A stretch of 10,205 bases of DNA from a virus. Taxonomy: Duplodnaviria > Heunggongvirae > Uroviricota > Caudoviricetes. The stretch spans positions 1 to 10,205 of the IMG/VR virus record IMGVR_UViG_2724679140_000003, one strand, 5' to 3'. The notes beneath the pieces are model-generated. The model did no database searches. It was not told the origin of the DNA and worked only from the letters and a program-made list of their open reading frames with translations. The position numbers were made by a program, and so were the translations under genes. Below, piece after piece: positions 1-10,205 of the stretch; position 1 is the stretch's first letter, and each line of letters opens with the position of its first letter.

Positions 1-345
1 GGCGGTGCGCATAGTCTCGTCACGATAGATGATCGGGGATTCAGTAACATTCACGCCGGAAGTGAACTCAAACAGGGTTCTGGCGTCGTTCTCGTACTGT
101 TTTCCCCAGGCCAGCGCCTTAGCGTTAACTTCCGGAGCCACACCGGTGCAAACCTCGGCAAGTAGGGTGTGGAAGTAGGACATTTTCATGTCAGGCCATT
201 TCTTTCCGGAGCGGGGTTTTGCTATCACGTTGTGAACTTCTGAAGCTGTGATGACGCCGAGCCGTAATTTGTGCCACGCATCATCCCCCTGCACGATAGC
301 TCTCACGTCGATCCCAGTACGCTGCAGGATAATGTTCGGTGTCAT
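1..345 (-). CDS. exo: Lambda-type exonuclease (Red alpha), N-terminal part; gene continues past the window edge
   Basis: Reverse-strand translation from ATG at 345..343 reads [115 protein letters not shown], which matches the lambda Exo N-terminus as I recall it. About 115 codons are present, open to position 1. The ATG overlaps the in-frame bet stop (ATGA) as in lambda. Confidence 0.9.
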
Positions 346-412
346 ATTGCCACCTTCTGCTCTGCGGCTTTCTGTTTCAGGAATCCAAGAGCTTTCACTG
401 CTTCGGCCTGTT

Positions 413-1126
413 TCAGTTCTGACAATGCATGAATGTCGCGGCGAAATATCTGGGAACAGAGCGGCAATAAGTCGTCATCCCATGTTTTATCCGGGCGATC
501 AGCAGAGTGTTAATCTCCTGCATGGTTTCATCGTTAACCGGAGTGATGTCGCGTTCCGGCTGATGTTCTGCAGTGCATGCGGTATTTTCGACAATGCGCT
601 CGGCTTCATCCTTGTCATAGATACCAGCAAATCCGAAGGCCAGACGGGCACACTGAATCATGGCTTTATGCCGTAACATCCGTTTGGGATGCGACTGCCA
701 TGGTCCGATGATTTCTTTGCCTTCTCGGGTTTTGAATGGTTCGCGACGGCACTCATCCATCCACTCGGTAACGCAGATCGGATGATTACGGTCCTTGCGG
801 TAAATCCGGCATGTACATGATTCATTGTCCTGCTCAAAGTCCATGCCATCAAACTGCTGGTTTTCATTTATGATGCGGGACCAGCCATCAACGCCCACCA
901 CCGGAACAATGCCGTTCTGCTTATCAGGGAAGGCGTAAATCTCTTTCGTCCACGGATTAAGTCCGTACTGGTTGGCGACGATCAGCAGCGCGATGAATTG
1001 CGCATCGCTGGCATTACCTTTAAATGCCGTCTGGCGAAGAGTGGCGATCAGTTCCTGCGGGTCGACAGAATCCATGCCGACGCGTTCAGCCAGCTTCCCG
1101 GCCAGTGTTGCAAGTGCTGTACTCAT
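413..1126 (-). CDS. bet: Red beta (Bet) single-strand annealing protein, C-terminus altered by an apparent 1-bp deletion (likely pseudogene or truncated variant)
   Basis: The 237-aa ORF starts [26 protein letters not shown] and tracks recalled lambda Bet almost residue for residue up to [12 protein letters not shown], then reads [26 protein letters not shown] and stops. The other frame from about 503 down to 342 still encodes a Bet-like tail ([20 protein letters not shown]...[11 protein letters not shown]) ending in TGA that overlaps the exo ATG. Start ATG at 1126..1124 is preceded by GAGG. Confidence 0.85.
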
Positions 1127-1131
1127 TCGTT

Positions 1132-1431
1132 TTATACCTCTGAATCAATATCAACCTGGTGATGAGCAATGGTTTCAACCATGTACCGGATGTGCTCCGC
1201 CACGCGTTCTTGAAATTCAACATCGTCATCAAATGCGCGACTGATTGCCTGTTTGCTGGCACCGTGGCGTTGCAAATGGTCGATGCAGAGCGATTCAAAC
1301 AGGTGCTGGGGCAGACCTTTTTCCAGGTCGTCCGCCAGCTCCGTTTCTTTTTCTTCGCGAACGATTTGCTGGTAGTGGCGTGACCATGCCTGCTCTTCAA
1401 TGCGATCAAAAATTGGGCATGTACTCATCAT
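1132..1431 (-). CDS. gam: Gam-like RecBCD inhibitor (short GamS-type form, 99 aa)
   Basis: Translation [99 protein letters not shown] matches recalled lambda Gam closely from the GamS start onward. Sits directly upstream of bet on the same strand. GGGG-rich SD before the ATG. Confidence 0.9.
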
Positions 1432-3379
1432 CCGTCACCCCAAAATTTTCAAGTTTGTTTGCAATCATCATTGCAATACCCGGAATTAATGGCGCTGAGG
1501 CTATACCCGCAGGATTTGCACATAAACCGTAAACCGCTGCAATCACCACTTGTCTTTTCCAGTCGAGTTTTTCTAATGATGAAGCTGCTGCTTCGCCAGT
1601 TTCATCACTGCAATCGCGATGCGGATCGCTGCCATCGTTCTCCTTGTGCGGATGTTCAGCACCTTCCATTTCCTCCAGACCTTTTTCCTGATATTCATTC
1701 TGATTTTCTTCATTAAAGGTTTTCTGATACGTTGCGTCGCCCATCACCGCACCACAGTCAGGGCAGTTATCCCCGCCAGTCTGACCGCAGGCATTGCAGA
1801 CTATTTCCGGTTCCTGTTGCACTACTGGCTCAGGTTGTTTCGCATCCGGGCTGATTTTTTCCGTTTCTGGCTGGTTCTGGTACACAGAATCGCGAGTCTG
1901 GATCCCCTTAACCCATTTCGGATCGTTCGGGTCGCTAATTCCGTCAACAAATTCACCACGTGATGCAGCAAGCAATTTATCGGCATCGACAGGATTTTTT
2001 GATGGAATGTTTTTCCGGGCTTCATGGAGTTCTGCCCGCTTTTTCTGGTATTCCGCTTCAACAGGGTTTACCTGTGACTGAGCATCCAGCGGCTGCGTGT
2101 TCTGATGATGTTCAGCTGCATCCGGTTCCACTGTTTCAGCCGTTGCCTGTTCATGTGCCATTGCGCCAGATGGTTGCGGTTTTTCTTCATCATCCTGTTT
2201 TTCTTCTTCTGTTACACGCTGCGGCATCGGGGCAGAGGAGCGACCGCAGGCAATATCCACGATTTCCGGATCAGGGTTGGCATGATCGGTTTCAGTCAGT
2301 ACTTTGTTCAGATATTCAGTGACGTGCGCGGGGATGACCTCGATCCCAATTGGTGCTTCTTTTACGGACGCAACCACGATGGCGCGGGAATAATCCAGCC
2401 CGCCAGGCATGGTGATGAATTTGTCGCGGAAAACAGAAAAGGGCGGTTTATTTTCAGCGATAATTTCCTCAATGCGTTTAGCGTGTGCCGGATGAAGGTT
2501 ATAGATGTCCACGTCCATTGAACGGGCCAGTACGCCAGTGGCTACATCGCGCGCCAGTGACGTCAGATCGTGGACGAAACCTTTGCCGCGATCGGTGAGG
2601 TTCCCGCCGCCAGCATTAGCACCGGAAGCCGTGCGGGTGATACGTGAAACACGATTTCCTTTCATCCACTCTTTTGTCAGCAGACCGCGATCGGTGTAGT
2701 CAGTGCCCAGGTATGCTTCGAAAAAAGCAGTCATCAGCCCCAGGCTTGAATTGCCTGGATTAGGGAAAACTCTGTCAGTATCACGCACCAGTTTGTGGAG
2801 ATCGCGAATTTCCAGCGGATCGAGCAGGCTGGTTTTGTGGGAAACAGCCAGGGCAGTAACAGCTGGTAGTTCTTCAGCTCGTGCAATGTGTAATGCCTGG
2901 AGTTCGTCGCGTGAAACGTGCGTTACCGGTTTTTCGCTGCCGTGTTGAGCAAGCCAGCGAATGGGCAGCTCCTGACCGGAAATCGGGAGTAGCATATTCT
3001 CCTCAATCTCCGTCATGTCTTCGCCATTAACATTGGTATTGTCAGTGCTGGCTGGTTTGTCCTGCGCAGAGGATGAGGGCGCGATAAATACCATTGTGAT
3101 GCCATCTTCCCCGCCTTTTTCGTAACGGTTGCAGAATTCCGTATCAAATACGCCTTCTGGTGGAAGGTCATCAACAACGGGCAAATTGACGCGAACAGGT
3201 TTTTTAAAGTCATCTTCATCGTAGCCAGCATCGTCAATCGCAACAGCACCACGGGAGATGGCAATGGATAATTTTTTCGCTTCAGCCCAGTAGAAACCGC
3301 CTTTAATACCGAGACGTTTTCTTACTTTGTCATTTTTTGCTTCGTAATACAGTGAGTAAACTTGTTTATCGGTGCTCAT
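1406..3379 (-). CDS. Large hypothetical protein (657 aa): acidic low-complexity segments, CxxC-x7-CxxC zinc knuckle, hydrophobic C-terminal segment; function unknown
   Basis: Uninterrupted 1974-nt ORF. ATG at 3379..3377 preceded by TGAGG about 9 nt upstream. Zinc knuckle [16 protein letters not shown] at about residues 528-543. Hydrophobic stretch [30 protein letters not shown] near the C-terminus. The 3' end overlaps the gam start by 26 nt. No Walker A or other catalytic motif recognised by eye. Plus-strand ORFs across this span are antisense and spurious. Confidence 0.85.
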
Positions 3380-3447
3380 TGTTTTTTAACCTCAACTCAG
3401 ATTAAAATTAATGCGAGTGATGAATAAATGTCCCAGGTTCTTCACTC

Positions 3448-3479
3448 AGGCCTGCACAGTGTGCAGGCTTTCTTTTTTT
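3448..3479 (+). terminator. Intrinsic-terminator-like hairpin oriented for plus-strand transcription
   Basis: Perfect 8-bp stem GCCTGCAC / GTGCAGGC (3450-3457 / 3461-3468) with 3-nt loop AGT, followed on the plus strand by TTTCTTTTTTT. On the minus strand the hairpin is preceded by an A-tract and followed by non-U sequence, so it is not a canonical terminator for the surrounding minus-strand genes. Confidence 0.45.
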
Positions 3480-3754
3480 CAGATTTCACCTTTTAATTTC
3501 ATTGCAATCAGAGTTGCCAGAAATTCGGCTTTTTTTTCTGCGGGCAGATTCTTTCCTATGTGCACCAGACACATTTTTTTAACACCATCGTTAAGTGTTT
3601 TAACGTTGCCTGATGGACCGTCGATATCAACCACAGTGAATGGGGTTTCTTTATTTTCTGTTTTAATCACATAGCCAATACGCTTTCCTTCCAGATTAAC
3701 CTCATGAACAATGTCATCAGTAGTAACAACAGTGGCTTCATAACTGGTAATCAT
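3479..3754 (-). CDS. Small hypothetical protein (91 aa)
   Basis: ATG at 3754..3752 is preceded by a strong SD (TAAGGAGAAAAAC then ATG). Translation MITSYEATVVTTDDIVHEVNLEGKRIGYVIKTENKETPFTVVDIDGPSGNVKTLNDGVKKMCLVHIGKNLPAEKKAEFLATLIAMKLKGEI. The ORF-track start at 3802 has no SD. No family recognised. Confidence 0.75.
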   Translation of the reverse strand: MITSYEATVVTTDDIVHEVNLEGKRIGYVIKTENKETPFTVVDIDGPSGNVKTLNDGVKKMCLVHIGKNLPAEKKAEFLATLIAMKLKGEI

Positions 3755-3828
3755 GTTTTTCTCCTTAATTAAGGTTGAGAGAATCCCTGCCATTGCTGGC
3801 ATAAATTCAGTTTCGAATAGTCAGTTAA

Positions 3829-4110
3829 TTAAAGTTCGTGTGCCATCTGGTCTTTTTCGGCACATTGCTTACAGCAGTATTTATGCTCCTTACGTGCAAT
3901 AAGGGAACCGTGCATATAAATAATTTCAGCAGTAAAGGCTTTTTCAGGTTCAATTTGTTTATTACAGAGCGTATATGCACAGGGAATTAAATCCGGGTCC
4001 CCCTTTTGCTGGAGGATTTTTCTGATTCTCCACAGCCATTTTTTAATTCCGGTGTGACTGATGGTCTGCCTGGAGGCAGGCGTAAAACAATAATCAAGCA
4101 TGGGGTTCAT
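3829..4110 (-). CDS. Small cysteine-rich hypothetical protein (about 93 aa), possible zinc-binding
   Basis: ORF MDMNPMLDYCFTP...KYCCKQCAEKDQMAHEL with seven Cys. The GGAG SD at 4122..4119 is too close to the first ATG (4116) but well spaced (8 nt) from the second ATG at 4110, so 4110 is the preferred start. The SD overlaps the stop of the upstream Rha-like gene. Confidence 0.7.
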   Translation of the reverse strand: MNPMLDYCFTPASRQTISHTGIKKWLWRIRKILQQKGDPDLIPCAYTLCNKQIEPEKAFTAEIIYMHGSLIARKEHKYCCKQCAEKDQMAHEL

Positions 4111-4126
4111 ATCCATAGCTCCATTT

Positions 4127-4681
4127 TTATTTTAAGGAAAGCAACTGCTCTACGGTCATATTTTTAATTGCGCTCCGGTTTACAAGAGTCCAGCCTTGTT
4201 TCTTCAGATAAAACTGGAAGGTATCCAGGGTGCAGACCATTGCGCCGTCAGGAACGGTTTCAGTGAATTTGATATTGCCGTGTTCGTCGAGACGGATAAC
4301 CAGGGTGCGTCCGTCCCCGTGAATCATTTTGTCGGGAGACGGGGCGTTATTCTGGCGCAGTTCTGCTTCCATGCGGTCGAACTCAGCAATGTATGCCTCT
4401 TTAAATGCAGCGGCTTTTTTGCCAGTGAAGCCCATCACCAGGAAAACGAAGCCGTTTTTGGTGATTTGGTACATGGGGCGTTTTTCGCCTTTGGCGTCGG
4501 TGTAGGTAACGGGCGTAAAATTGCGCTCGTTAAAATCTTCAGAGCATTCTAGCGTTTCAATTTTGCGCAGAACGTCCTTGTGCATTTTGCGGAAGAACTC
4601 TGCAACCGCAACAGACGTAGTGACAGCGCGACCATTTTCGATGGTTACGTCAGGGTGAGAAAGGGTAGGGATAGTAGCCAT
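4127..4681 (-). CDS. Rha-family phage regulatory protein (184 aa short form; an in-frame upstream start at 4978 would give 283 aa)
   Basis: N-terminal motif RAVTTSVAVAEFFRKMHKDVLRKIE resembles the conserved core of the phage Rha domain (recalled pattern ...VAE.FGKRHDNVLRDI). ATG at 4681..4679 has SD AAGAGG about 8 nt upstream and puts the motif at the usual N-terminal position. The longer in-frame ORF from 4978 contains an intrinsic terminator, so the short form is preferred. Confidence 0.75.
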   Translation of the reverse strand: MATIPTLSHPDVTIENGRAVTTSVAVAEFFRKMHKDVLRKIETLECSEDFNERNFTPVTYTDAKGEKRPMYQITKNGFVFLVMGFTGKKAAAFKEAYIAEFDRMEAELRQNNAPSPDKMIHGDGRTLVIRLDEHGNIKFTETVPDGAMVCTLDTFQFYLKKQGWTLVNRSAIKNMTVEQLLSLK

Positions 4682-4847
4682 AATGGCAGCCTCTTGGTTA
4701 AGTATTAATAACTCACCACCAAGGTTTTCCACGACCATAAGGGTGGTGAGACGTACAGGGGTGGAAATACCGGTCAACCAAGAATCCGGCCAGCCTTGCA
4801 GCTGCCCTGCACGCCCCACCATAATCTGAATGTGGCTGTGCTTGACG

Positions 4848-4873
4848 CATAAAAAAACCGCCTGAGCGCGGTT
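4848..4873 (-). terminator. Intrinsic terminator (minus strand)
   Basis: Minus-strand RNA reads AACCGC-GCUCAG-GCGGUU followed by UUUUUAUG: a 6-bp stem, 6-nt loop and 7-U tract counting the stem Us. Lies between the DicF-like element and the Rha-like gene start. Confidence 0.5.
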
Positions 4874-5146
4874 ATGCGCTTGATTGAATTCCGGGTTTCC
4901 ACGCCCGGCACCCGTTTTATGAGGTGCAGGTGCACTATAATTCCACCCGTTCTGGTTTTCAATAGCTACATTCAACATTTTCTCTACCTTTCATCACCGA
5001 AGTGAACTTTGTTGATGCGGTGCCTGGTGCCTCCAGGTGACGTTAACCAGTTAACAATTAACGCCGGATAATCCACCCATAACACTGATGCTTTTAACTG
5101 TTCCGCGTGCGCTTAGCCGCATTCACCGCATCACAAAATTCACTTT

Positions 5147-5215
5147 AAAAAGGGCGGACATCAGCCGAACTTCAAGAAAAAAACTGATGCCGCCAAGACT
5201 ACACACAGCAGTGTT
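5147..5215 (-). ncRNA. DicF-like small RNA with terminator hairpin (5' end uncertain)
   Basis: Minus strand reads ...CUGCUGUGUGUAGUCUUGGCGGCAUCAGUUUUUUUCUUGAAGUUCGGCUGAUGUCCGCCCUUUUU. Long hairpin GGCGGCAUCAG / CUGAUGUCCGCC (plus-strand 5153..5194) followed by a U-tract. The segment UUGGCGG(C)AUCAGUUUU and the CCGCCC-UUUUU 3' end match E. coli DicF as I recall it. Position after the repressor and tiny ORFs mirrors the Qin dicA-ydfABC-dicF layout. Confidence 0.45.
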
Positions 5216-5392
5216 GTTATTCACAACCGGAGGCGCACTCCCACCATTTAAATTTAACAGACAAGACCGACTCTTTATGGATACCGGAAATGCGCCTTCG
5301 TGTTGTGCCCGGTTTTATTTCACCACCTCCGGGCTTTGGTGGCCTCGGCTATACCCCTACAGCAAGAATATTGAATTAATCCAATAAATGGT

Positions 5393-5545
5393 TTAGCTGG
5401 TATTTTTGGCAAGCCAGCGACGTGCGCCAGCTTCGGTTTTAAACGATTTGCTTTTGGTATACGTCATGGCGGTGAACGTTCCATCCTGGTTGGGGAACAC
5501 GCCACACACCAGGGATTCGTTGTTGCCGAGGTCGATTTTTTGCAT
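5393..5545 (-). CDS. Small hypothetical protein (50 aa), YdaF/YdfA-like position in the operon
   Basis: ATG at 5545..5543 preceded by SD GAGGG. Translation MQKIDLGNNESLVCGVFPNQDGTFTAMTYTKSKSFKTEAGARRWLAKNTS. Length and position resemble the tiny genes following racR or dicA in Rac and Qin; sequence identity not verified. The ORF-track version (87 aa from 5656) runs through the upstream gene in another frame. Confidence 0.6.
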   Translation of the reverse strand: MQKIDLGNNESLVCGVFPNQDGTFTAMTYTKSKSFKTEAGARRWLAKNTS

Positions 5546-5556
5546 TTTGGGAACCC

Positions 5557-5691
5557 TCACATCTTGTTGTTGCGGATAGAGGCTTCTGCCTGCCAGAGAT
5601 CCCAGTCGTTGCTGCGTAGAGCCTGTACAGCTTGGCTGTAAGTGATGCCGCAACAATCCATCAAATACTGAACTACTTCGTAATGCACCAT
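5557..5691 (-). CDS. Small hypothetical protein (44 aa), YdaG/YdfB-like position; not in the supplied ORF track
   Basis: ATG at 5691..5689 preceded by strong SD (AAAGGGAGAGAUAAA then AUG). Translation MVHYEVVQYLMDCCGITYSQAVQALRSNDWDLWQAEASIRNNKM. Stop TGA at 5559..5557 overlaps the SD of the next gene, suggesting translational coupling. Confidence 0.6.
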   Translation of the reverse strand: MVHYEVVQYLMDCCGITYSQAVQALRSNDWDLWQAEASIRNNKM

Positions 5692-5757
5692 TTTATCTCT
5701 CCCTTTAACGCCGGGTGGCGGAACTAAAACCTACAGCGCCGTGCTGTTCTTGATAGA

Positions 5758-5786
5758 ATATTAGTAACACGGATATTTTAAGTCAA
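5758..5786 (-). promoter_or_regulatory. Candidate sigma70 promoter for the leftward early operon
   Basis: Minus strand: -35 TTGACT (5786..5781), 17-nt spacer, -10 TAATAT (5763..5758). Lies downstream of the repressor terminator and about 65 nt upstream of the 44-aa gene. Confidence 0.45.
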
Positions 5787-5883
5787 CAGTATGGCGTATG
5801 ATATTTTTGATTTAGTAACTATGTAAATGTTTTTTCAAGGGAAAAATATTAGTTATACAGCTGATTTTCAGAAGTTATGGCAC

Positions 5884-5913
5884 AAAAAAACCGACTAAGA
5901 CGTCGGTTTTTTG
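5884..5913. terminator. Bidirectional intrinsic terminator downstream of the repressor gene
   Basis: AAAAAAA-CCGAC-UAAGAC-GUCGG-UUUUUUG: stem AACCGAC / GTCGGTT (5889-5895 / 5902-5908), 6-nt loop, A7 tract upstream and T6 tract downstream. About 25 nt past the repressor stop on the minus strand. Confidence 0.6.
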
Positions 5914-5938
5914 TTGTGGATGGGGTAGTGAGTGGTGG

Positions 5939-6400
5939 CTACTGGTTACGTTTCTTTAGTGCCAGCATGTTCTCGAAGGCTTCCTCGTAGAGCTTGTTTA
6001 GTCCACGTAGCTGGTTAAGGAGTTTGGCTTTTTCTGACGCAGGTAGAATCTCGAAGAGGTTAAGTAACTCAGCCTGTTCTTCATTGACCAGCCTCCATCC
6101 TTTGCCTGAAAAGCTATCATCATAAGTATCTGATGATCTTACATAATTCATTAAGTCTTTAAGGTCTTCTCGAATGTCCTCTGGTTTTACCTTTAACAGA
6201 GCCGCAAATTTTAGCGCAGCGTCGGTATTTACCGGTATCTTGCCGTTCAGATACTGGCTAACGGTGCCTTGAGATTCGAATCCCAACAACTCAGCCGCCA
6301 GCTCTTGAGTCAGCTTCAGCTCTTTTTTTCTTGCATTCCATGCGGCTTTTAAATTCTTGCTCGCTTCTGGAGTTGCAATCACTTCGCGTGTTTTTTTCAT
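5939..6400 (-). CDS. DicA/RacR-type prophage repressor (XRE-family HTH, 153 aa, no S24 peptidase domain)
   Basis: HTH segment LTQELAAELLGFESQGTVSQYLNGKIPVNTDAALKFAALLKV. C-terminal segment EEQAELLNLFEILPASEKAKLLNQLRGLNKLYEEAFENMLALKKRN resembles the recalled DicA C-terminus. Divergent from a Cro-like gene. Weak or absent SD. Confidence 0.85.
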   Translation of the reverse strand: MKKTREVIATPEASKNLKAAWNARKKELKLTQELAAELLGFESQGTVSQYLNGKIPVNTDAALKFAALLKVKPEDIREDLKDLMNYVRSSDTYDDSFSGKGWRLVNEEQAELLNLFEILPASEKAKLLNQLRGLNKLYEEAFENMLALKKRNQ

Positions 6401-6448
6401 ACATAGAGTTTATTTGTTTTACCAATATTATCAAAGATAGTCTGACTG

Positions 6449-6477
6449 TTGATCTTTAAAATTAGTGGGGCTAATAT
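6449..6477 (+). promoter_or_regulatory. Candidate rightward early promoter within the divergent repressor/cro intergenic region
   Basis: -35 TTGATC (6449-6454), 17-nt spacer, -10 TAATAT (6472-6477), about 30 nt upstream of the cro-like start. Imperfect inverted repeat TCAAAGAT (6431-6438) / ATCTTTAA (6452-6459) overlaps the -35 and may be an operator. Confidence 0.5.
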
Positions 6478-6507
6478 TTGCTCGAGGCATAACGTAGAAG
6501 GTTGGCT

Positions 6508-6783
6508 ATGAACTTAAGAGACTATTTAAAAGAGAAACATATCACCCAGTTACAGTTTGGGAAGCTAACGGGTTTATCTCAGGTGCATGTAAGTCGAGTG
6601 CTGGGGGGCTATGAAAGATTCAGCCCTGAAAAAGCATTACGTGTTGCTGAAGTAACGAATTTCGAGGTTACACCTCATGAACTCCGGCCTGATATCTACC
6701 CGAATCCGACCGATGGTTTACCTGTTGGATGTAAGGCTAACACACAAAATGCACAGGAGTTGATTCATGAAAATCAGGCATGA
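6508..6783 (+). CDS. Cro-like regulator, YdaS/DicC family (91 aa from ATG; the ORF track uses TTG at 6502)
   Basis: ATG at 6508 preceded by GAAGG 7 nt upstream. Translation MNLRDYLKEKHITQLQFGKLTGLSQVHVSRVLGGYERFSPEKALRVAEVTNFEVTPHELRPDIYP... has an HTH and the C-terminal pattern typical of YdaS-family proteins. Divergent from the repressor. Confidence 0.85.
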   Translation: MNLRDYLKEKHITQLQFGKLTGLSQVHVSRVLGGYERFSPEKALRVAEVTNFEVTPHELRPDIYPNPTDGLPVGCKANTQNAQELIHENQA

Positions 6784-7189
6784 GCACATCGAATCAGTGT
6801 TGTTAGCCCTAGCCGCTGAAAAAGGGCAGGCGTGGGTCGCTAACGCAATTACTGAAGAATATCTCCGCCAGGGGGGAGGTGAATTGTCTCTGACACCAGG
6901 CAAGGACTGGAACAATCAGCAGAACATCTATCGCCGTTGGTTAAAAGGTGAAACGGAAGCGCAAAGGGAAAAAATTCAGAAGCTGATCCCAGCAATTCTG
7001 GCAATCCTTCCGCGGGAGCTGCGTCACCGACTCTGCATCTTCGATACCCTGGAACGCCGTGCATTACTGGCGGCGCAGGAGGCGTTGAGTACGGCAATTG
7101 ATGCGCATGATGATGCAGTCCAGGCCGTTTACCGGAAAGCGCATTTCAGCGGCGGCGGGTCTTCCGACGATTCTGTCATTGTTCATTAA
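6767..7189 (+). CDS. YdaT-like protein (140 aa), proposed CII-like regulator in Rac-type prophages
   Basis: Starts MKIRHEHIESVLLALAAEKG..., resembling the recalled N-terminus of Rac YdaT (MKIKHEHI...). AGGAG SD 7 nt upstream. Overlaps the cro-like gene by 17 nt. Confidence 0.8.
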   Translation: MKIRHEHIESVLLALAAEKGQAWVANAITEEYLRQGGGELSLTPGKDWNNQQNIYRRWLKGETEAQREKIQKLIPAILAILPRELRHRLCIFDTLERRALLAAQEALSTAIDAHDDAVQAVYRKAHFSGGGSSDDSVIVH

Positions 7190-7252
7190 GCAAAAGTTTC
7201 CATGCTGTTTGTGCTTATTCTAAGCCACCGGGCAGCATCATACGGGGCAATT

Positions 7253-8059
7253 ATGGCCGCATTACCATACATGCAACTGTACATAGCTGATTACCTGGCT
7301 GACACCATGCATTTGTCAGCAGAGGAGCATGGTGCGTATTTGTTGCTGATGTTCAATTACTGGCAAACAGGAAAGCCAATACCTAAAAACAGGCTGGCAA
7401 AAATTGCCCGTCTGACTAACGAGCGATGGGCTGATGTTGAACCATCCTTGCAGGAGTTTTTTTGCGATAACGGCGAGGAATGGGTGCATCTTCGGATTGA
7501 GGAAGATCTGGCATCAGTCAGGGAAAAATTAACCAAAAAATCAGCCGCAGGAAAAGCATCTGTTCAGGCCAGAAGAAGCAGAAAGGAAGCTGATGTTCAA
7601 ACAAAACAAGAGAGAAATTTAACAGGTGTTCAAACAGATGTTGAAGTGGTGTTTGAACATGATGTCAACACAAAGGCAACTAATAAAGATACAGATAAAG
7701 ATCTAAAAACAGATCCCCCCCTAAATCCCCCCCGGGGGAATCGAGGTGTCAAAAAGTTTGACCCTCTGGATATTGTTTTGCCGAACTGGATTTCTGTCTC
7801 GCTTTGGCGTGAGTGGGTTGAATTTCGCCAGGCATTGCGAAAACCGATTCGAACGGAGCAGGGCGCTAACGGGGCGATACGGGAACTGGAAAAATTCCGT
7901 CAGCAGGGTTTTACACCTGAGCAGGTGATTCGACACAGCATCGCCAATGAATACCAGGGCCTGTTCGCGCCGAAAGGTGTTCGGCCTGAGACGTTGCTCC
8001 GACAGGTTAACACCGTCTCGTTGCCGGACAGTGCGATCCCGCCTGGCTTCAGGGGGTAA
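7253..8059 (+). CDS. DUF1376 (YdaU-like) replication initiation protein, O-like (269 aa; alternative in-frame start at 7202)
   Basis: N-terminal MAALPYMQLYIADYLADTMHLSAEEHGAYLLLMFNYWQTGKPIP matches the conserved DUF1376 signature (YM.LYI.DYL.DT..LS.EEHGAYL.L). Followed immediately by a DnaC-like gene. ATG at 7253 has GGGG upstream. Confidence 0.85.
   Translation: MAALPYMQLYIADYLADTMHLSAEEHGAYLLLMFNYWQTGKPIPKNRLAKIARLTNERWADVEPSLQEFFCDNGEEWVHLRIEEDLASVREKLTKKSAAGKASVQARRSRKEADVQTKQERNLTGVQTDVEVVFEHDVNTKATNKDTDKDLKTDPPLNPPRGNRGVKKFDPLDIVLPNWISVSLWREWVEFRQALRKPIRTEQGANGAIRELEKFRQQGFTPEQVIRHSIANEYQGLFAPKGVRPETLLRQVNTVSLPDSAIPPGFRG
7556..7672. repeat. Iteron-like repeats inside the DUF1376 gene followed by an AT-rich stretch: candidate replication origin
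   Basis: Repeats of about 10 bp related to TGTTCAAACA at roughly 34-35 bp spacing: cTGTTCAggc (7560), gaTGTTCAAACA (7592), ggTGTTCAAACA (7626), inverted TGTTTGAACA (7651), gaTGTCAACA (7661), plus ggTGTCAAAAA further on at 7747. AT-rich 7672-7712 follows. Confidence 0.4.
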
Positions 8060-8065
8060 CAGACC

Positions 8066-8812
8066 ATGAAAAATATTGCGACAGGAGGCGTTCTGGAGCG
8101 TATCCGCAGACTGACCCCACCACATGTAACCGCCCCATTCAGAACGGTTGCGGAGTGGCGCGAGTGGCAACTTGCTGAAGGCCAGAAACGTAGTGAGGAG
8201 ATCAACCGCCTGAATCGCCAGTTGCGGGTGGAAAAAATTCTGAATCGCTCAGGCATCCAGCCGTTGCACCGTAAATGCTCGTTTGCGAATTACCAGGTGC
8301 AGAACGACGGCCAGCGATACGCGTTAAGCCAGGCGAAATCCATCGCCGATGAACTGATGACCGGGTGTACAAATTTTGCGTTCAGCGGAAAACCTGGTAC
8401 CGGGAAGAATCACTTAGCGGCAGCTATCGGGAATCGCCTGCTGAAAGACGGTCAGACAGTGATTGTGGTTACCGTGGCTGATGTTATGAGTGCTCTACAC
8501 GCCAGCTATGACGACGGGCAATCAGGCGAAAAATTTTTGCGGGAACTGTGCCAAGTGGATCTGCTGGTTCTTGATGAAATTGGCATTCAGCGCGAGACAA
8601 AAAACGAGCAGGTGGTGCTGCACCAGATTGTTGATCGCCGGACAGCGTCGATGTGCAGCGTGGGGATGCTGACAAACCTGAACTATGAGGCCATGAAAAC
8701 ATTGCTCGGCGAGAGGATTATAGATCGCATGACCATGAACGGCGGGCGATGGGTGAATTTTAATTGGGAGAGCTGGCGTCCGAATGTCGTCCAGCCAGGA
8801 ATTGCGAAGTGA
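8066..8812 (+). CDS. DnaC-like helicase loader / IstB-like AAA+ ATPase (YdaV-like replication protein, 248 aa)
   Basis: Walker [16 protein letters not shown] and Walker B LLVLDEIG. Recognisable DnaC-family layout. ATG at 8066 with GGGGG SD. Directly downstream of the O-like gene. Confidence 0.9.
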
Positions 8813-8834
8813 TTTTTACCGGGAGGAAATTTTA

Positions 8835-8984
8835 ATGGAAACCGTTTTTGATGCACTGAAAGCAATGGGAAAAGCCACGTCGGTAGAACTGGCTGCGCGA
8901 CTTGATATCAGTCGTGAAGAAGTGCTGAACGAGCTGTGGGAACTGAAAAAGGCTGGATTCGTTGATAAAAGCGCGTACACCTGA
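8835..8984 (+). CDS. Small winged-helix-like protein (49 aa)
   Basis: Strong SD GGGAGG 8 nt before ATG at 8835. Translation [49 protein letters not shown] looks like an HTH. Ends with TGA at 8982-8984, in frame with the next ORF. Confidence 0.6.
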
Positions 8985-8987
8985 CGT

Positions 8988-9596
8988 GTGGCCGATAACA
9001 ACGTTCAGCAGGAACATCCAGTGCCGGAAGAACAGCCGGAAGAAATCGCCACGGCAACAGTAGCGAAAATCTCAGAGTGCGATTTAACCGCGACGATTGA
9101 ACAACGCGGACCACAAACGGCGGATGAACTGGCTACGCTGTTCGGTACCACATCCCGCAAAGTTGCTTCAACGCTGGCAATGGCAATCAGCAAAGGACGC
9201 CTGATTCGCGTAAATCAGAACGGTAAATTTCGTTACTGCATGCCGGGCGGTAATTTACCAGCAGAGCCGAAAGCTGCATCGGTAGCGGAAACTGATGGTA
9301 AAGCCTTTCCTCAGCCTGCATGTGTTGTTTTACCAGTACAGGAGGCTGCAATACAGGAAGAAATTAAAACAGAAACTGTGGCGGACATTGTGCAGCCGCT
9401 GCCATCGTTCACTGAAACGCGAGCAGATGACCTGGTTTTACCATCGCTGCATATGGCAAACCGCGAACTGCGTCGGGCGAAAAGTCATGTCCAGAAGTGG
9501 GAGCGAGTCTGCGCCGCGCTGCGTGAGCTGAACAAGCACCAGGATATTGTCCGTCAGATTGTCGATTCCTCCAGTCGTATTGTGTCGGAAAAGTGA
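8988..9596 (+). CDS. Hypothetical protein (202 aa) with a second HTH-like segment; GTG start, or a readthrough extension of the preceding ORF
   Basis: Long ORF in the same frame as 8835..8984. First codon GTG at 8988 with no convincing SD. Contains [32 protein letters not shown], which resembles the HTH of the upstream 49-aa ORF. Confidence 0.7.
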
Positions 9597-9612
9597 TTCT
9601 AGGGGAGGGCTT

Positions 9613-10035
9613 ATGGCAAAAGTATTAACACAGGAAGAGCGAGAAAAAATTAAAGGGCAGATTGTTGATCTCGTACGCCAGAGCGAGCGAGAGACGTTAC
9701 GACAACTGGAAGCTAAAACAGGCGCGACAAGATATCTGATGAGTGTTCTCGCCAGAGAGCTTGTTGCCAGTGGCGATGTATATAACTCCGGCTACGGGTT
9801 ATTCCCGCCAGAACAGGCTCGTAAGGACTGGCAAAATGCCCGCAAAAAACTATCCAGGGCAAAGGTGAAGAAACCATCTGTGGTTGATCCTGACCTTATC
9901 TGGTCATTACCAGACGGAGAAATACGCCACTACGACAGGCGTCAGAACATAATCTGTAGCGAGTGCCGGAAGAGCGAAGTTATGCAGCGCGTGCTGGCGT
10001 TTTATCAGGGGAATTTTCAGGAGGTGGCACAGTGA
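9613..10035 (+). CDS. Hypothetical protein (140 aa from ATG 9613; the ORF track extends it to 9547)
   Basis: Strong SD GGGGAGGG immediately upstream of ATG 9613. Translation MAKVLTQEEREKIKGQIVDLVRQSERETLRQLEAKTGATRYLMSVLARELVASGDV... No family recognised. Confidence 0.7.
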   Translation: MAKVLTQEEREKIKGQIVDLVRQSERETLRQLEAKTGATRYLMSVLARELVASGDVYNSGYGLFPPEQARKDWQNARKKLSRAKVKKPSVVDPDLIWSLPDGEIRHYDRRQNIICSECRKSEVMQRVLAFYQGNFQEVAQ

Positions 10036-10205
10036 GCGGGATTGACTACCAGGATTTGGCTGCTGCCAACGCTTTCCTGGCGGATGTGCGGGCAGGGGCG
10101 TTTAACGACCTTTGCGCGGCGTTTGTCAGGCACGAAAAAATTGCAGGACTGGGTGATGGCGACACTGTGACGCTTAAGGAAGCGACTGATGCGCTGCTGC
10201 ACTGT
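10032..10205 (+). CDS. Hypothetical protein, 5' part only (runs off window)
   Basis: GTG at 10032 overlaps the preceding stop (GTGA). Open frame to the window end reading MSGIDYQDLAAANAFLADVRAGAFNDLCAAFVRHEKIAGLGDGDTVTLKEATDALLHC. No SD assessed; short and partial. Confidence 0.35.
   Translation, partial: MSGIDYQDLAAANAFLADVRAGAFNDLCAAFVRHEKIAGLGDGDTVTLKEATDALLHC

Follow-up and report, generated by a model that had tools for sequence, protein, structure and literature searches.

A predicted small antisense RNA gene in the racC-recE spacer of a Rac-type prophage of Escherichia coli

A probable small antisense RNA gene between racC and recE

The spacer between the racC homologue and the RecE-family gene of a Rac-type lambdoid prophage probably encodes a small cis-antisense RNA, about 64 nucleotides (nt) long. 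We analysed positions 1 to 10,205 of the IMG/VR record IMGVR_UViG_2724679140_000003 (this whole 10,205-nt stretch is the window in what follows), which match the chromosome of E. coli IGC_EcoliInv_1.1 at 100% identity; gene names and borders follow the RefSeq annotation of that identical record. We put the probability that the RNA gene exists at roughly 0.75, and infer its regulatory outcome with much less certainty. A reading made from the sequence alone had proposed that a short antisense RNA is read on the plus strand between a promoter near 3379-3408 and a terminator, and two homologous loci now support it, one through an RNA 3' end mapped by Term-seq in E. coli K-12 and the other through the mapped 5' end of IsrB in Salmonella. 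Judged by its sequence setting, the predicted RNA appears to be a positional relative of IsrB, with which it shares position, orientation, promoter block and terminator, and not RNA sequence.

The spacer is 99 bp long (3380-3478), and both of its neighbours are transcribed from the minus strand. The racC homologue (3479-3754, 91 amino acids (aa), 93.5% nucleotide identity with K-12 racC) lies upstream in the operon and ends with its stop codon at 3479-3481. The RecE-family gene (1406-3379, 657 aa; referred to as recE below) lies downstream, has only the N-terminal Exonuc_VIII domain by Pfam, and is the probable cis target of the predicted RNA. Its start codon is annotated at 3377-3379, with a minus-strand Shine-Dalgarno sequence, GAGG, at 3390-3393 (cctc on the plus strand).

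An intrinsic terminator on the plus strand

The right half of the spacer contains a hairpin at 3448-3470 on the plus strand, found by a consensus scan and by folding and assessed with shuffled sequences. It has 10 pairs, including one G.U and six GC pairs, with a perfect 8-bp core at 3450-3468 and the loop AGT. The T-tract TTCTTTTTTT follows directly at 3470-3479; all but its last base, part of the racC stop codon, is non-coding. Together, hairpin and TTCTTTTTTT form the top-ranked terminator-like site of the window in the consensus scan. Under strict criteria (8 or more perfect pairs, 5 or more of them or others GC, and 6 or more T among the 9 bases that follow), the hairpin is the sole match in the window on either strand, and a site of this quality was present in 2/300 dinucleotide-preserving shuffles of the window. 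The plus-strand terminator at 3448-3479, proposed earlier as an 8-bp GC-rich stem plus T-tract antisense to the minus-strand operon, therefore keeps its coordinates, with the 8-bp core now placed within a 10-pair stem.

On the plus strand this is the arrangement expected of an intrinsic terminator, a GC-rich hairpin followed directly by a U-tract. The minus-strand RNA has an A-run before the hairpin and CUGAGUGAAG after it, and because no U-tract follows on that strand, the hairpin is not an intrinsic terminator for the minus-strand operon.

The hairpin and its T-rich tail are kept across the E. coli alleles, so the conservation in related prophages that the sequence-only reading had looked to is present. 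The loop of the terminator (3458-3460) occurs in both orientations among close relatives (L015, L115, L161), with AGT/ACT variants in the window type and CCATA/TATGG variants in the K-12 type; the palindrome has apparently been flipped repeatedly. One Logan contig (L099, SRR23625871_16756) has the 3' arm of the terminator stem replaced by GCCTGCGCCATACGGTATTA and has lost the hairpin. This sequence comes from a single short assembly and is perhaps an assembly artefact or a decayed copy.

An abundant 3' end at the K-12 orthologue

RNA 3' ends within the U-tract have been mapped for the K-12 orthologue only, by Term-seq, a method that registers 3' ends and no other part of a transcript. A plus-strand 3' end at MG1655 coordinate 1417486, classed as 'antisense racC', is among the entries of supplementary file 1 of Adams et al. 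(2021, eLife 10:e62438). The 61-nt context given for this entry (TCTTGCCGGATACACACTGTTCATAGCCTGCGCCATACGCAGGCTATTTCT, then TTCAGATTTC) is exactly the K-12 racC-recE spacer sequence. By the layout of the table the 3' end is base 51 of the context, with which the sgrS row agrees, and this places the K-12 end at GCAGGCUAUUUCU, within the U-tract and five to seven nt past the stem. The text of Adams et al. (2021) does not mention this 3' end.

The coordinate is listed three times in a file of three sheets, one per growth condition, with 185,664 reads (lysogeny broth, optical density 0.4) and 146,140 reads (Adams et al., 2021). Counts are comparable within one strand only, since the two strands are on different scales, with lowest entries of about 700-850 for the plus strand and some 23,000 for the minus strand. 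On the plus strand, sokC has 66,697 reads, the lpp terminator 275,198, and typical antisense entries 700-2,000 (Adams et al., 2021). Because its counts are far above those of typical antisense entries on the same strand, the K-12 site represents an abundant RNA end.

A conserved block with a putative promoter, and the mapped 5' end of IsrB

The left end of the spacer belongs to an invariant 39-bp block (3372-3410), which carries the recE start codon and ribosome-binding site (RBS) on the minus strand and the putative promoter of the small RNA on the plus strand. Compared with E. coli K-12, 38/39 bases of the block match, whereas the adjoining 5' coding sequence of recE is not conserved (57% identity), and the block also occurs in degenerate form in Gifsy-2. 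Conservation between the window and K-12 ends at the 3' edge of the -10 hexamer, within one to two bases. The block is the left border of a variable RNA cassette and an apparent recombination joint. Homology to phage-database sequences also breaks at about 3372.

Within the block, the putative -10 TAAAAT (3403-3408) matches the consensus at 5/6 positions and is nearly invariant in E. coli relatives; the putative -35 TTGTTT (3379-3384), separated from it by an 18-nt spacer, matches at 3/6 and is weakly supported. The recE Shine-Dalgarno sequence (3390-3393) sits between the two hexamers, upstream of the predicted RNA start at about 3415.

A mapped start site is available for the related Salmonella locus. 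IsrB-1 and IsrB-2 of the Salmonella Typhimurium prophages Gifsy-2 and Gifsy-1 are RNAs of 88 and 94 nt, encoded between sbcA (a recE homologue) and its upstream gene in the strand pattern <- -> <- (Padalon-Brauch et al., 2008, PMC2330248). Northern blots and primer extension revealed these RNAs, including when a plasmid supplied the intergenic region alone (PMC2330248). As a positive control, the Rfam isrB model (RF01386) matched the Gifsy-2 record (L103) at 5993-6080 on the plus strand with 99.3 bits. The flanking genes there are on the minus strand, sbcA starting at 5955 and STM1010 ending with its stop at 6082. The published IsrB 5' ends map to L103 positions 5987 and 5993, and the hexamer TAGAAT (5976-5981) lies 6 nt upstream of the primer-extension end at 5987. 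In the alignment of the two blocks, Gifsy-2 CTCATTGTTTTGTCCTCAATTCGTGTAGAAT pairs with window CTCATTGTTTTTTAACCTCAACTCAGATTAAAAT and TAGAAT stands opposite TAAAAT. Because the blocks align, the -10 of the window is homologous to the box that precedes a mapped IsrB 5' end.

Extent, fold and alleles of the predicted RNA

The predicted RNA would extend over 3415-3478 on the plus strand (about 61-65 nt), its start placed at G3415 or A3416 and its end taken from the K-12 3' end and the T-tract. From 3411 or 3415 to about 3478 the sequence folds into two adjacent hairpins (-26.6 kcal/mol, z = -4.6), of which stem-loop 1 (3415-3447, by folding) has 6 + 4 pairs and an 11-nt loop and stem-loop 2 is the terminator. 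Since the racC stop codon occupies 3479-3481, an RNA with its end at about 3475-3479 would share no more than one base with racC. The earlier claim of a transcript of about 65 nt complementary to both the 3' end of the 91-aa gene and the leader of the 657-aa gene therefore stands for the leader and falls away for racC beyond that one base.

We considered whether the locus might encode a peptide. An 87-aa open reading frame (ORF) on the plus strand (3411-3674) was rejected as coding: it reads across the terminator, and most relatives lack its ATG (3411). In the K-12 allele the spacer offers no more than a 9-codon ORF, which is not conserved. As neither spacer strand holds a conserved small ORF that could serve as a toxin, the locus is not a type I toxin-antitoxin pair of the Sok or RalA kind; ralR lies elsewhere in the prophage. 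OmrA-B, the best Rfam hit, was also discarded as a family for the RNA: its 21 bits fall short of the threshold of 40 and reflect a generic likeness between terminators.

Two alleles of the RNA body occur in E. coli, type A (the window) and type B (K-12 Rac), together with an A-subtype (L097, L106). The bodies of the two E. coli types are unrelated in sequence, and IsrB is a third type. From just past the -10 to the racC stop, window and K-12 are 56% identical, and about 49% in the part forming stem-loop 1. Despite its unrelated sequence, the K-12 allele keeps the two-hairpin shape (-24.9 kcal/mol, z = -4.9), and the terminator stem shows one compensatory A-T/G-C pair exchange between the window and K-12 types. 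All three RNA types have a non-coding T-rich tail after a plus-strand hairpin. Divergent RacC loci carry the same two RNA types and the L097/L106 subtype.

When the type of the recE 5' region is set against the type of the RNA body, all four combinations occur (window, L003, K-12 and L098). The RNA body consequently behaves as a separate cassette, with the 39-bp block as the recombination joint, and because it assorts independently of the recE 5' type, a promoter further inside recE is unlikely.

Stem variants among 14 distinct type-A sequences differ in how well they pair on the two strands. On the plus strand 278/280 stem cells are paired, against 247/280 on the minus strand. Five variable pairs hold solely through plus-strand G.U; a further one favours the minus strand, and another is disrupted on either strand. 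Two substitutions in stem-loop 1 of relatives keep pairing only as plus-strand G.U, and such plus-strand-only variants are also found in the terminator stem of relatives. For type-A variants the plus-strand fold is the more stable by 2-9 kcal/mol. Double-sided stem changes were not found within type A, whose sequences are too close for covariation.

Proposed mode of action

RNA polymerase would start on the plus strand about 6-7 nt past TAAAAT, from a promoter embedded in the translation-initiation region of recE. The two-hairpin RNA would then be transcribed up to the intrinsic terminator at 3448-3479, which abuts the racC stop codon. IsrB-1 is expressed in Salmonella strain 4/74, and the D23580 data show no expression of the Gifsy-2 lytic genes (Owen et al., 2020, PMC7067206). 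Since both the K-12 orthologue and IsrB are expressed while the lytic genes of the prophage are silent, the RNA is probably made in the lysogen.

Along its whole length the predicted RNA is complementary to the recE leader, from -36 to about -98 in the polycistronic early-left transcript, and its promoter would fire head-on into the early-left operon. We think the most likely outcome would be reduced output of recE and of the recombination and excision genes that follow it, or an uncoupling of these from racC. This might proceed by duplex formation followed by decay through RNase III or RNase E, or, alone or in combination with such decay, by transcriptional collision and promoter occlusion at the recE RBS.

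A far more speculative thought, to which we would give long odds, is that the RNA body is a hypervariable, independently assorting cassette acting as an allele-specific recognition determinant. If so, the resident RNA would silence the racC, recE and recombination transcripts of superinfecting or co-resident Rac- or Gifsy-like phages with the same allele, diversification would represent phage escape, and the RNA would form an immunity-like, RNA-based layer of exclusion. The RNA would then also set the RacC:RecE ratio, which is relevant to the retron toxin RcaT.

Weighing the evidence and alternative explanations

Several points weigh against the antisense RNA gene proposed here. The promoter put forward by the sequence-only reading, TTGTTT and TAAAAT with an 18-nt spacer, has the hexamers and spacing that were claimed, and its -10 aligns with that of IsrB. 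The two hexamers jointly match the consensus at 8/12 positions, and taken alone they are not above chance: the pair is missing from the promoter scan's own list of sites in the window, where 21 plus-strand and 11 minus-strand sites are equal or better. The -35 assignment is doubtful, as its distance from the -10 differs between the window (18 nt) and Gifsy-2 (15 nt). The experimental ends also come from different organisms, the 3' end from K-12 and the 5' end from Salmonella, and we extend both to the start site and to expression of the window allele. Because the recE Shine-Dalgarno sequence lies upstream of the start at about 3415, the predicted RNA is not complementary to the recE RBS; with both this sequence and the start codon uncovered, a simple block of translation seems unlikely. 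Rfam searches of the whole window and the 161-nt region, with both the window and K-12 alleles, placed the RNA body in no family above threshold, and the literature searched shows no function for IsrB. The K-12 type folds about equally well on both strands. The 5 to 1 asymmetry of G.U variants is suggestive and favours the plus strand; its weak point is that the structure under comparison was itself derived from the plus-strand fold.

Some of these points suit other explanations. The hairpin could be a plus-strand backstop terminator without a promoter of its own, the K-12 3' end then being a hairpin-protected remnant of antisense read-through from the recE and recombination region. We regard this as quite unlikely. 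It would fit an assay confined to 3' ends, promoter hexamers at chance level and the known accumulation of 3' fragments protected by terminators. However, the promoter scan has no stronger plus-strand promoter-like site in 1-3400, the terminator is kept beside non-homologous recE 5' regions while the adjoining 39-bp block is invariant, and the K-12 count is far above the antisense noise of about 700-2,000 on the plus strand. In Gifsy-2, moreover, the 5' end lies 6 nt past the aligned -10 and was also obtained from a plasmid-borne intergenic region. Still less plausible, indeed very improbable, is that the hairpin acts only within the sense early-left mRNA, as a barrier to 3' exonucleases or a processing site, so stabilising racC or setting it apart from recE. 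The hairpin does also form in the minus-strand RNA directly past the racC stop codon, and the equal folding of the K-12 allele on both strands would suit such a role. Yet the non-coding plus-strand T-tract kept in all three types has no role in a sense RNA, the stem variants are mismatches on the minus strand, and K-12 yields a plus-strand 3' end while the operon is expected to be repressed.

It is also possible, though we consider it unlikely, that the RNA is made as proposed and acts mainly in trans, as an Hfq- or ProQ-associated base-pairing small RNA for mRNAs of the host or of other prophages, its antisense position being incidental. Trans action is common among prophage small RNAs, Rfam labels isrB 'Hfq binding RNA', and the window allele closes with a strong terminator hairpin and a long U-tail, like Hfq-dependent small RNAs. 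The K-12 allele, however, ends in AUUUCU, a poor Hfq tail, and the single-stranded part is hypervariable between alleles, which fits poorly with a conserved host target. Further points against trans action are that the small-RNA tables searched that derive from RIL-seq (RNA interaction by ligation and sequencing) hold no racC-named RNA, and that no complementarity of at least 10 nt to the predicted RNA was found elsewhere in the window. A small cis-antisense RNA gene with its own promoter in the 39-bp block remains the reading that we prefer.

Genomic context and neighbouring RNA signals

The racC homologue is preceded in the early-left operon by ydaE (3829-4116) and a Rha/Ash-like gene (4127-4978), both on the minus strand. 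Beyond recE, the minus-strand operon continues with gam, bet, exo, ralR, xisR and intR; to the right of the operon lie the repressor, ydaS/ydaT and replication genes. Among 5,426 complete E. coli genomes, 2,518 gave a match to the recE-racC region and 1,797 to the spacer itself, and searches for RacC homologues outside Escherichia and Shigella found essentially none.

The 657-aa RecE-family protein has its Exonuc_VIII domain at aa 52-189 and lacks the C-terminal DUF3799/PD-(D/E)XK nuclease domain of the 866-aa RecE of its relatives. Lambda-type gam, bet and exo follow its gene in place of recT (L001). According to a review citing Bobonis et al. (2022), RecE is a trigger and RacC a blocker of the retron toxin RcaT. 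On that description, the genes on either side of the antisense RNA have opposing effects on one host defence system.

Other RNA signals occur further upstream in the operon, all on the minus strand. Rfam models for the C4 antisense RNA (4739-4826, 76.7 bits) and isrK (4851-4927, 69.2 bits) match above their gathering thresholds, and a c4-a1b1 target match at 4888-4940 is sub-threshold. All three fall inside the RefSeq 283-aa 'Rha family' coding sequence (4127-4978), under its Pfam Phage_ASH part (aa 14-109), so that either the start of this coding sequence is over-extended or the region has a dual role as RNA and mRNA, as reported for Gifsy-1 IsrK. Upstream of isrK and C4 there are near-threshold matches to DicF (5152-5207, 42.6 bits against 48) and STnc100 (5008-5140, 42.1 against 47), and, going by these matches, 5008-5207 may encode a DicF-like small RNA in the immunity-proximal part of the early-left operon.

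Novelty and significance

The E. coli racC-recE antisense RNA is unnamed and undiscussed in the searchable literature, which leaves aside subscription papers and several key data sets, so an earlier mention is possible. The data tables of Shinhara (2011), Kim (2012) and Bar (2021) have no racC or recE entry, and in the literature searched the only trace of the RNA is the supplementary-table row of Adams et al. (2021).

Rac is carried by E. coli K-12 and many other E. coli genomes, and the RecET proteins of its operon are the basis of a widely used recombineering system. If the RNA controls recE and recT, the excision genes or the balance between racC and recE, it would help to keep this ubiquitous cryptic prophage quiet. 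The predicted RNA also makes IsrB of Salmonella one member of a broader class of lambdoid early-left antisense RNAs, conserved in position and variable in sequence, that family models such as those of Rfam miss.

Comparison with known antisense RNAs

One RNA of this general kind is the OOP RNA of phage lambda, a constitutive 77-nt antisense RNA with an intrinsic terminator that is encoded between co-directional early genes and acts on the sense transcript. It lies between cII and O in the early-right operon, and its overlap with the 3' part of the cII coding sequence is about 50 nt. The predicted RNA resembles OOP in being short and antisense, in ending at an intrinsic terminator and in lying between two early lambdoid genes that are read in the same direction. 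Unlike OOP, it lies in the early-left operon, between racC and recE, and covers only the intercistronic spacer, with at most 1 nt of coding overlap; we saw no sequence relation between the two. The label 'oop-like' given by the sequence-only reading is therefore apt in a loose sense, for a short antisense RNA with a terminator, and not for the part of the operon that is covered. OOP is also described by Owen et al. (2020, PMC7067206), together with STnc6030 of the Salmonella prophage BTP1, a 786-nt RNA antisense to late structural genes that is expressed in lysogens and is a precedent for the sequence-specific exclusion of related phages by antisense RNA. The predicted RNA shares with STnc6030 its nature as a prophage antisense RNA, without any positional or sequence relation.

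A further comparison is with sar of the P22 immI region, an antisense RNA of about 68 nt from the arc-ant intercistronic region that covers the ant RBS and blocks translation. Both are intercistronic antisense RNAs with a promoter facing operon transcription. The difference lies in the downstream RBS, which sar covers, whereas the recE Shine-Dalgarno sequence (3390-3393) and AUG (3377-3379) are upstream of the start predicted here.

IsrB is the counterpart in position, although its transcribed sequence is not alignable with ours. The isrB covariance model (gathering score 35 bits) gave no match in the whole window (E <= 1), in 3350-3510 (161 nt, E <= 10) or in the K-12 spacer. IsrB has three hairpins rather than two, it overlaps both flanking genes according to its authors (PMC2330248), its upstream gene STM1010 in Gifsy is unrelated to racC, and TTGTTT stands 15 nt from the -10 in Gifsy-2 and 18 nt here. 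The likenesses lie in the arrangement of the locus. Both RNAs occupy the spacer directly upstream of recE or sbcA and are antisense to the two flanking early-left genes, and both have an intrinsic terminator abutting the stop codon of the upstream gene. Both promoters also overlap the recE/sbcA RBS within one shared block, CTCATTGTTTT..CCTCAA.TC...TA.AAT, which points to a homologous promoter.

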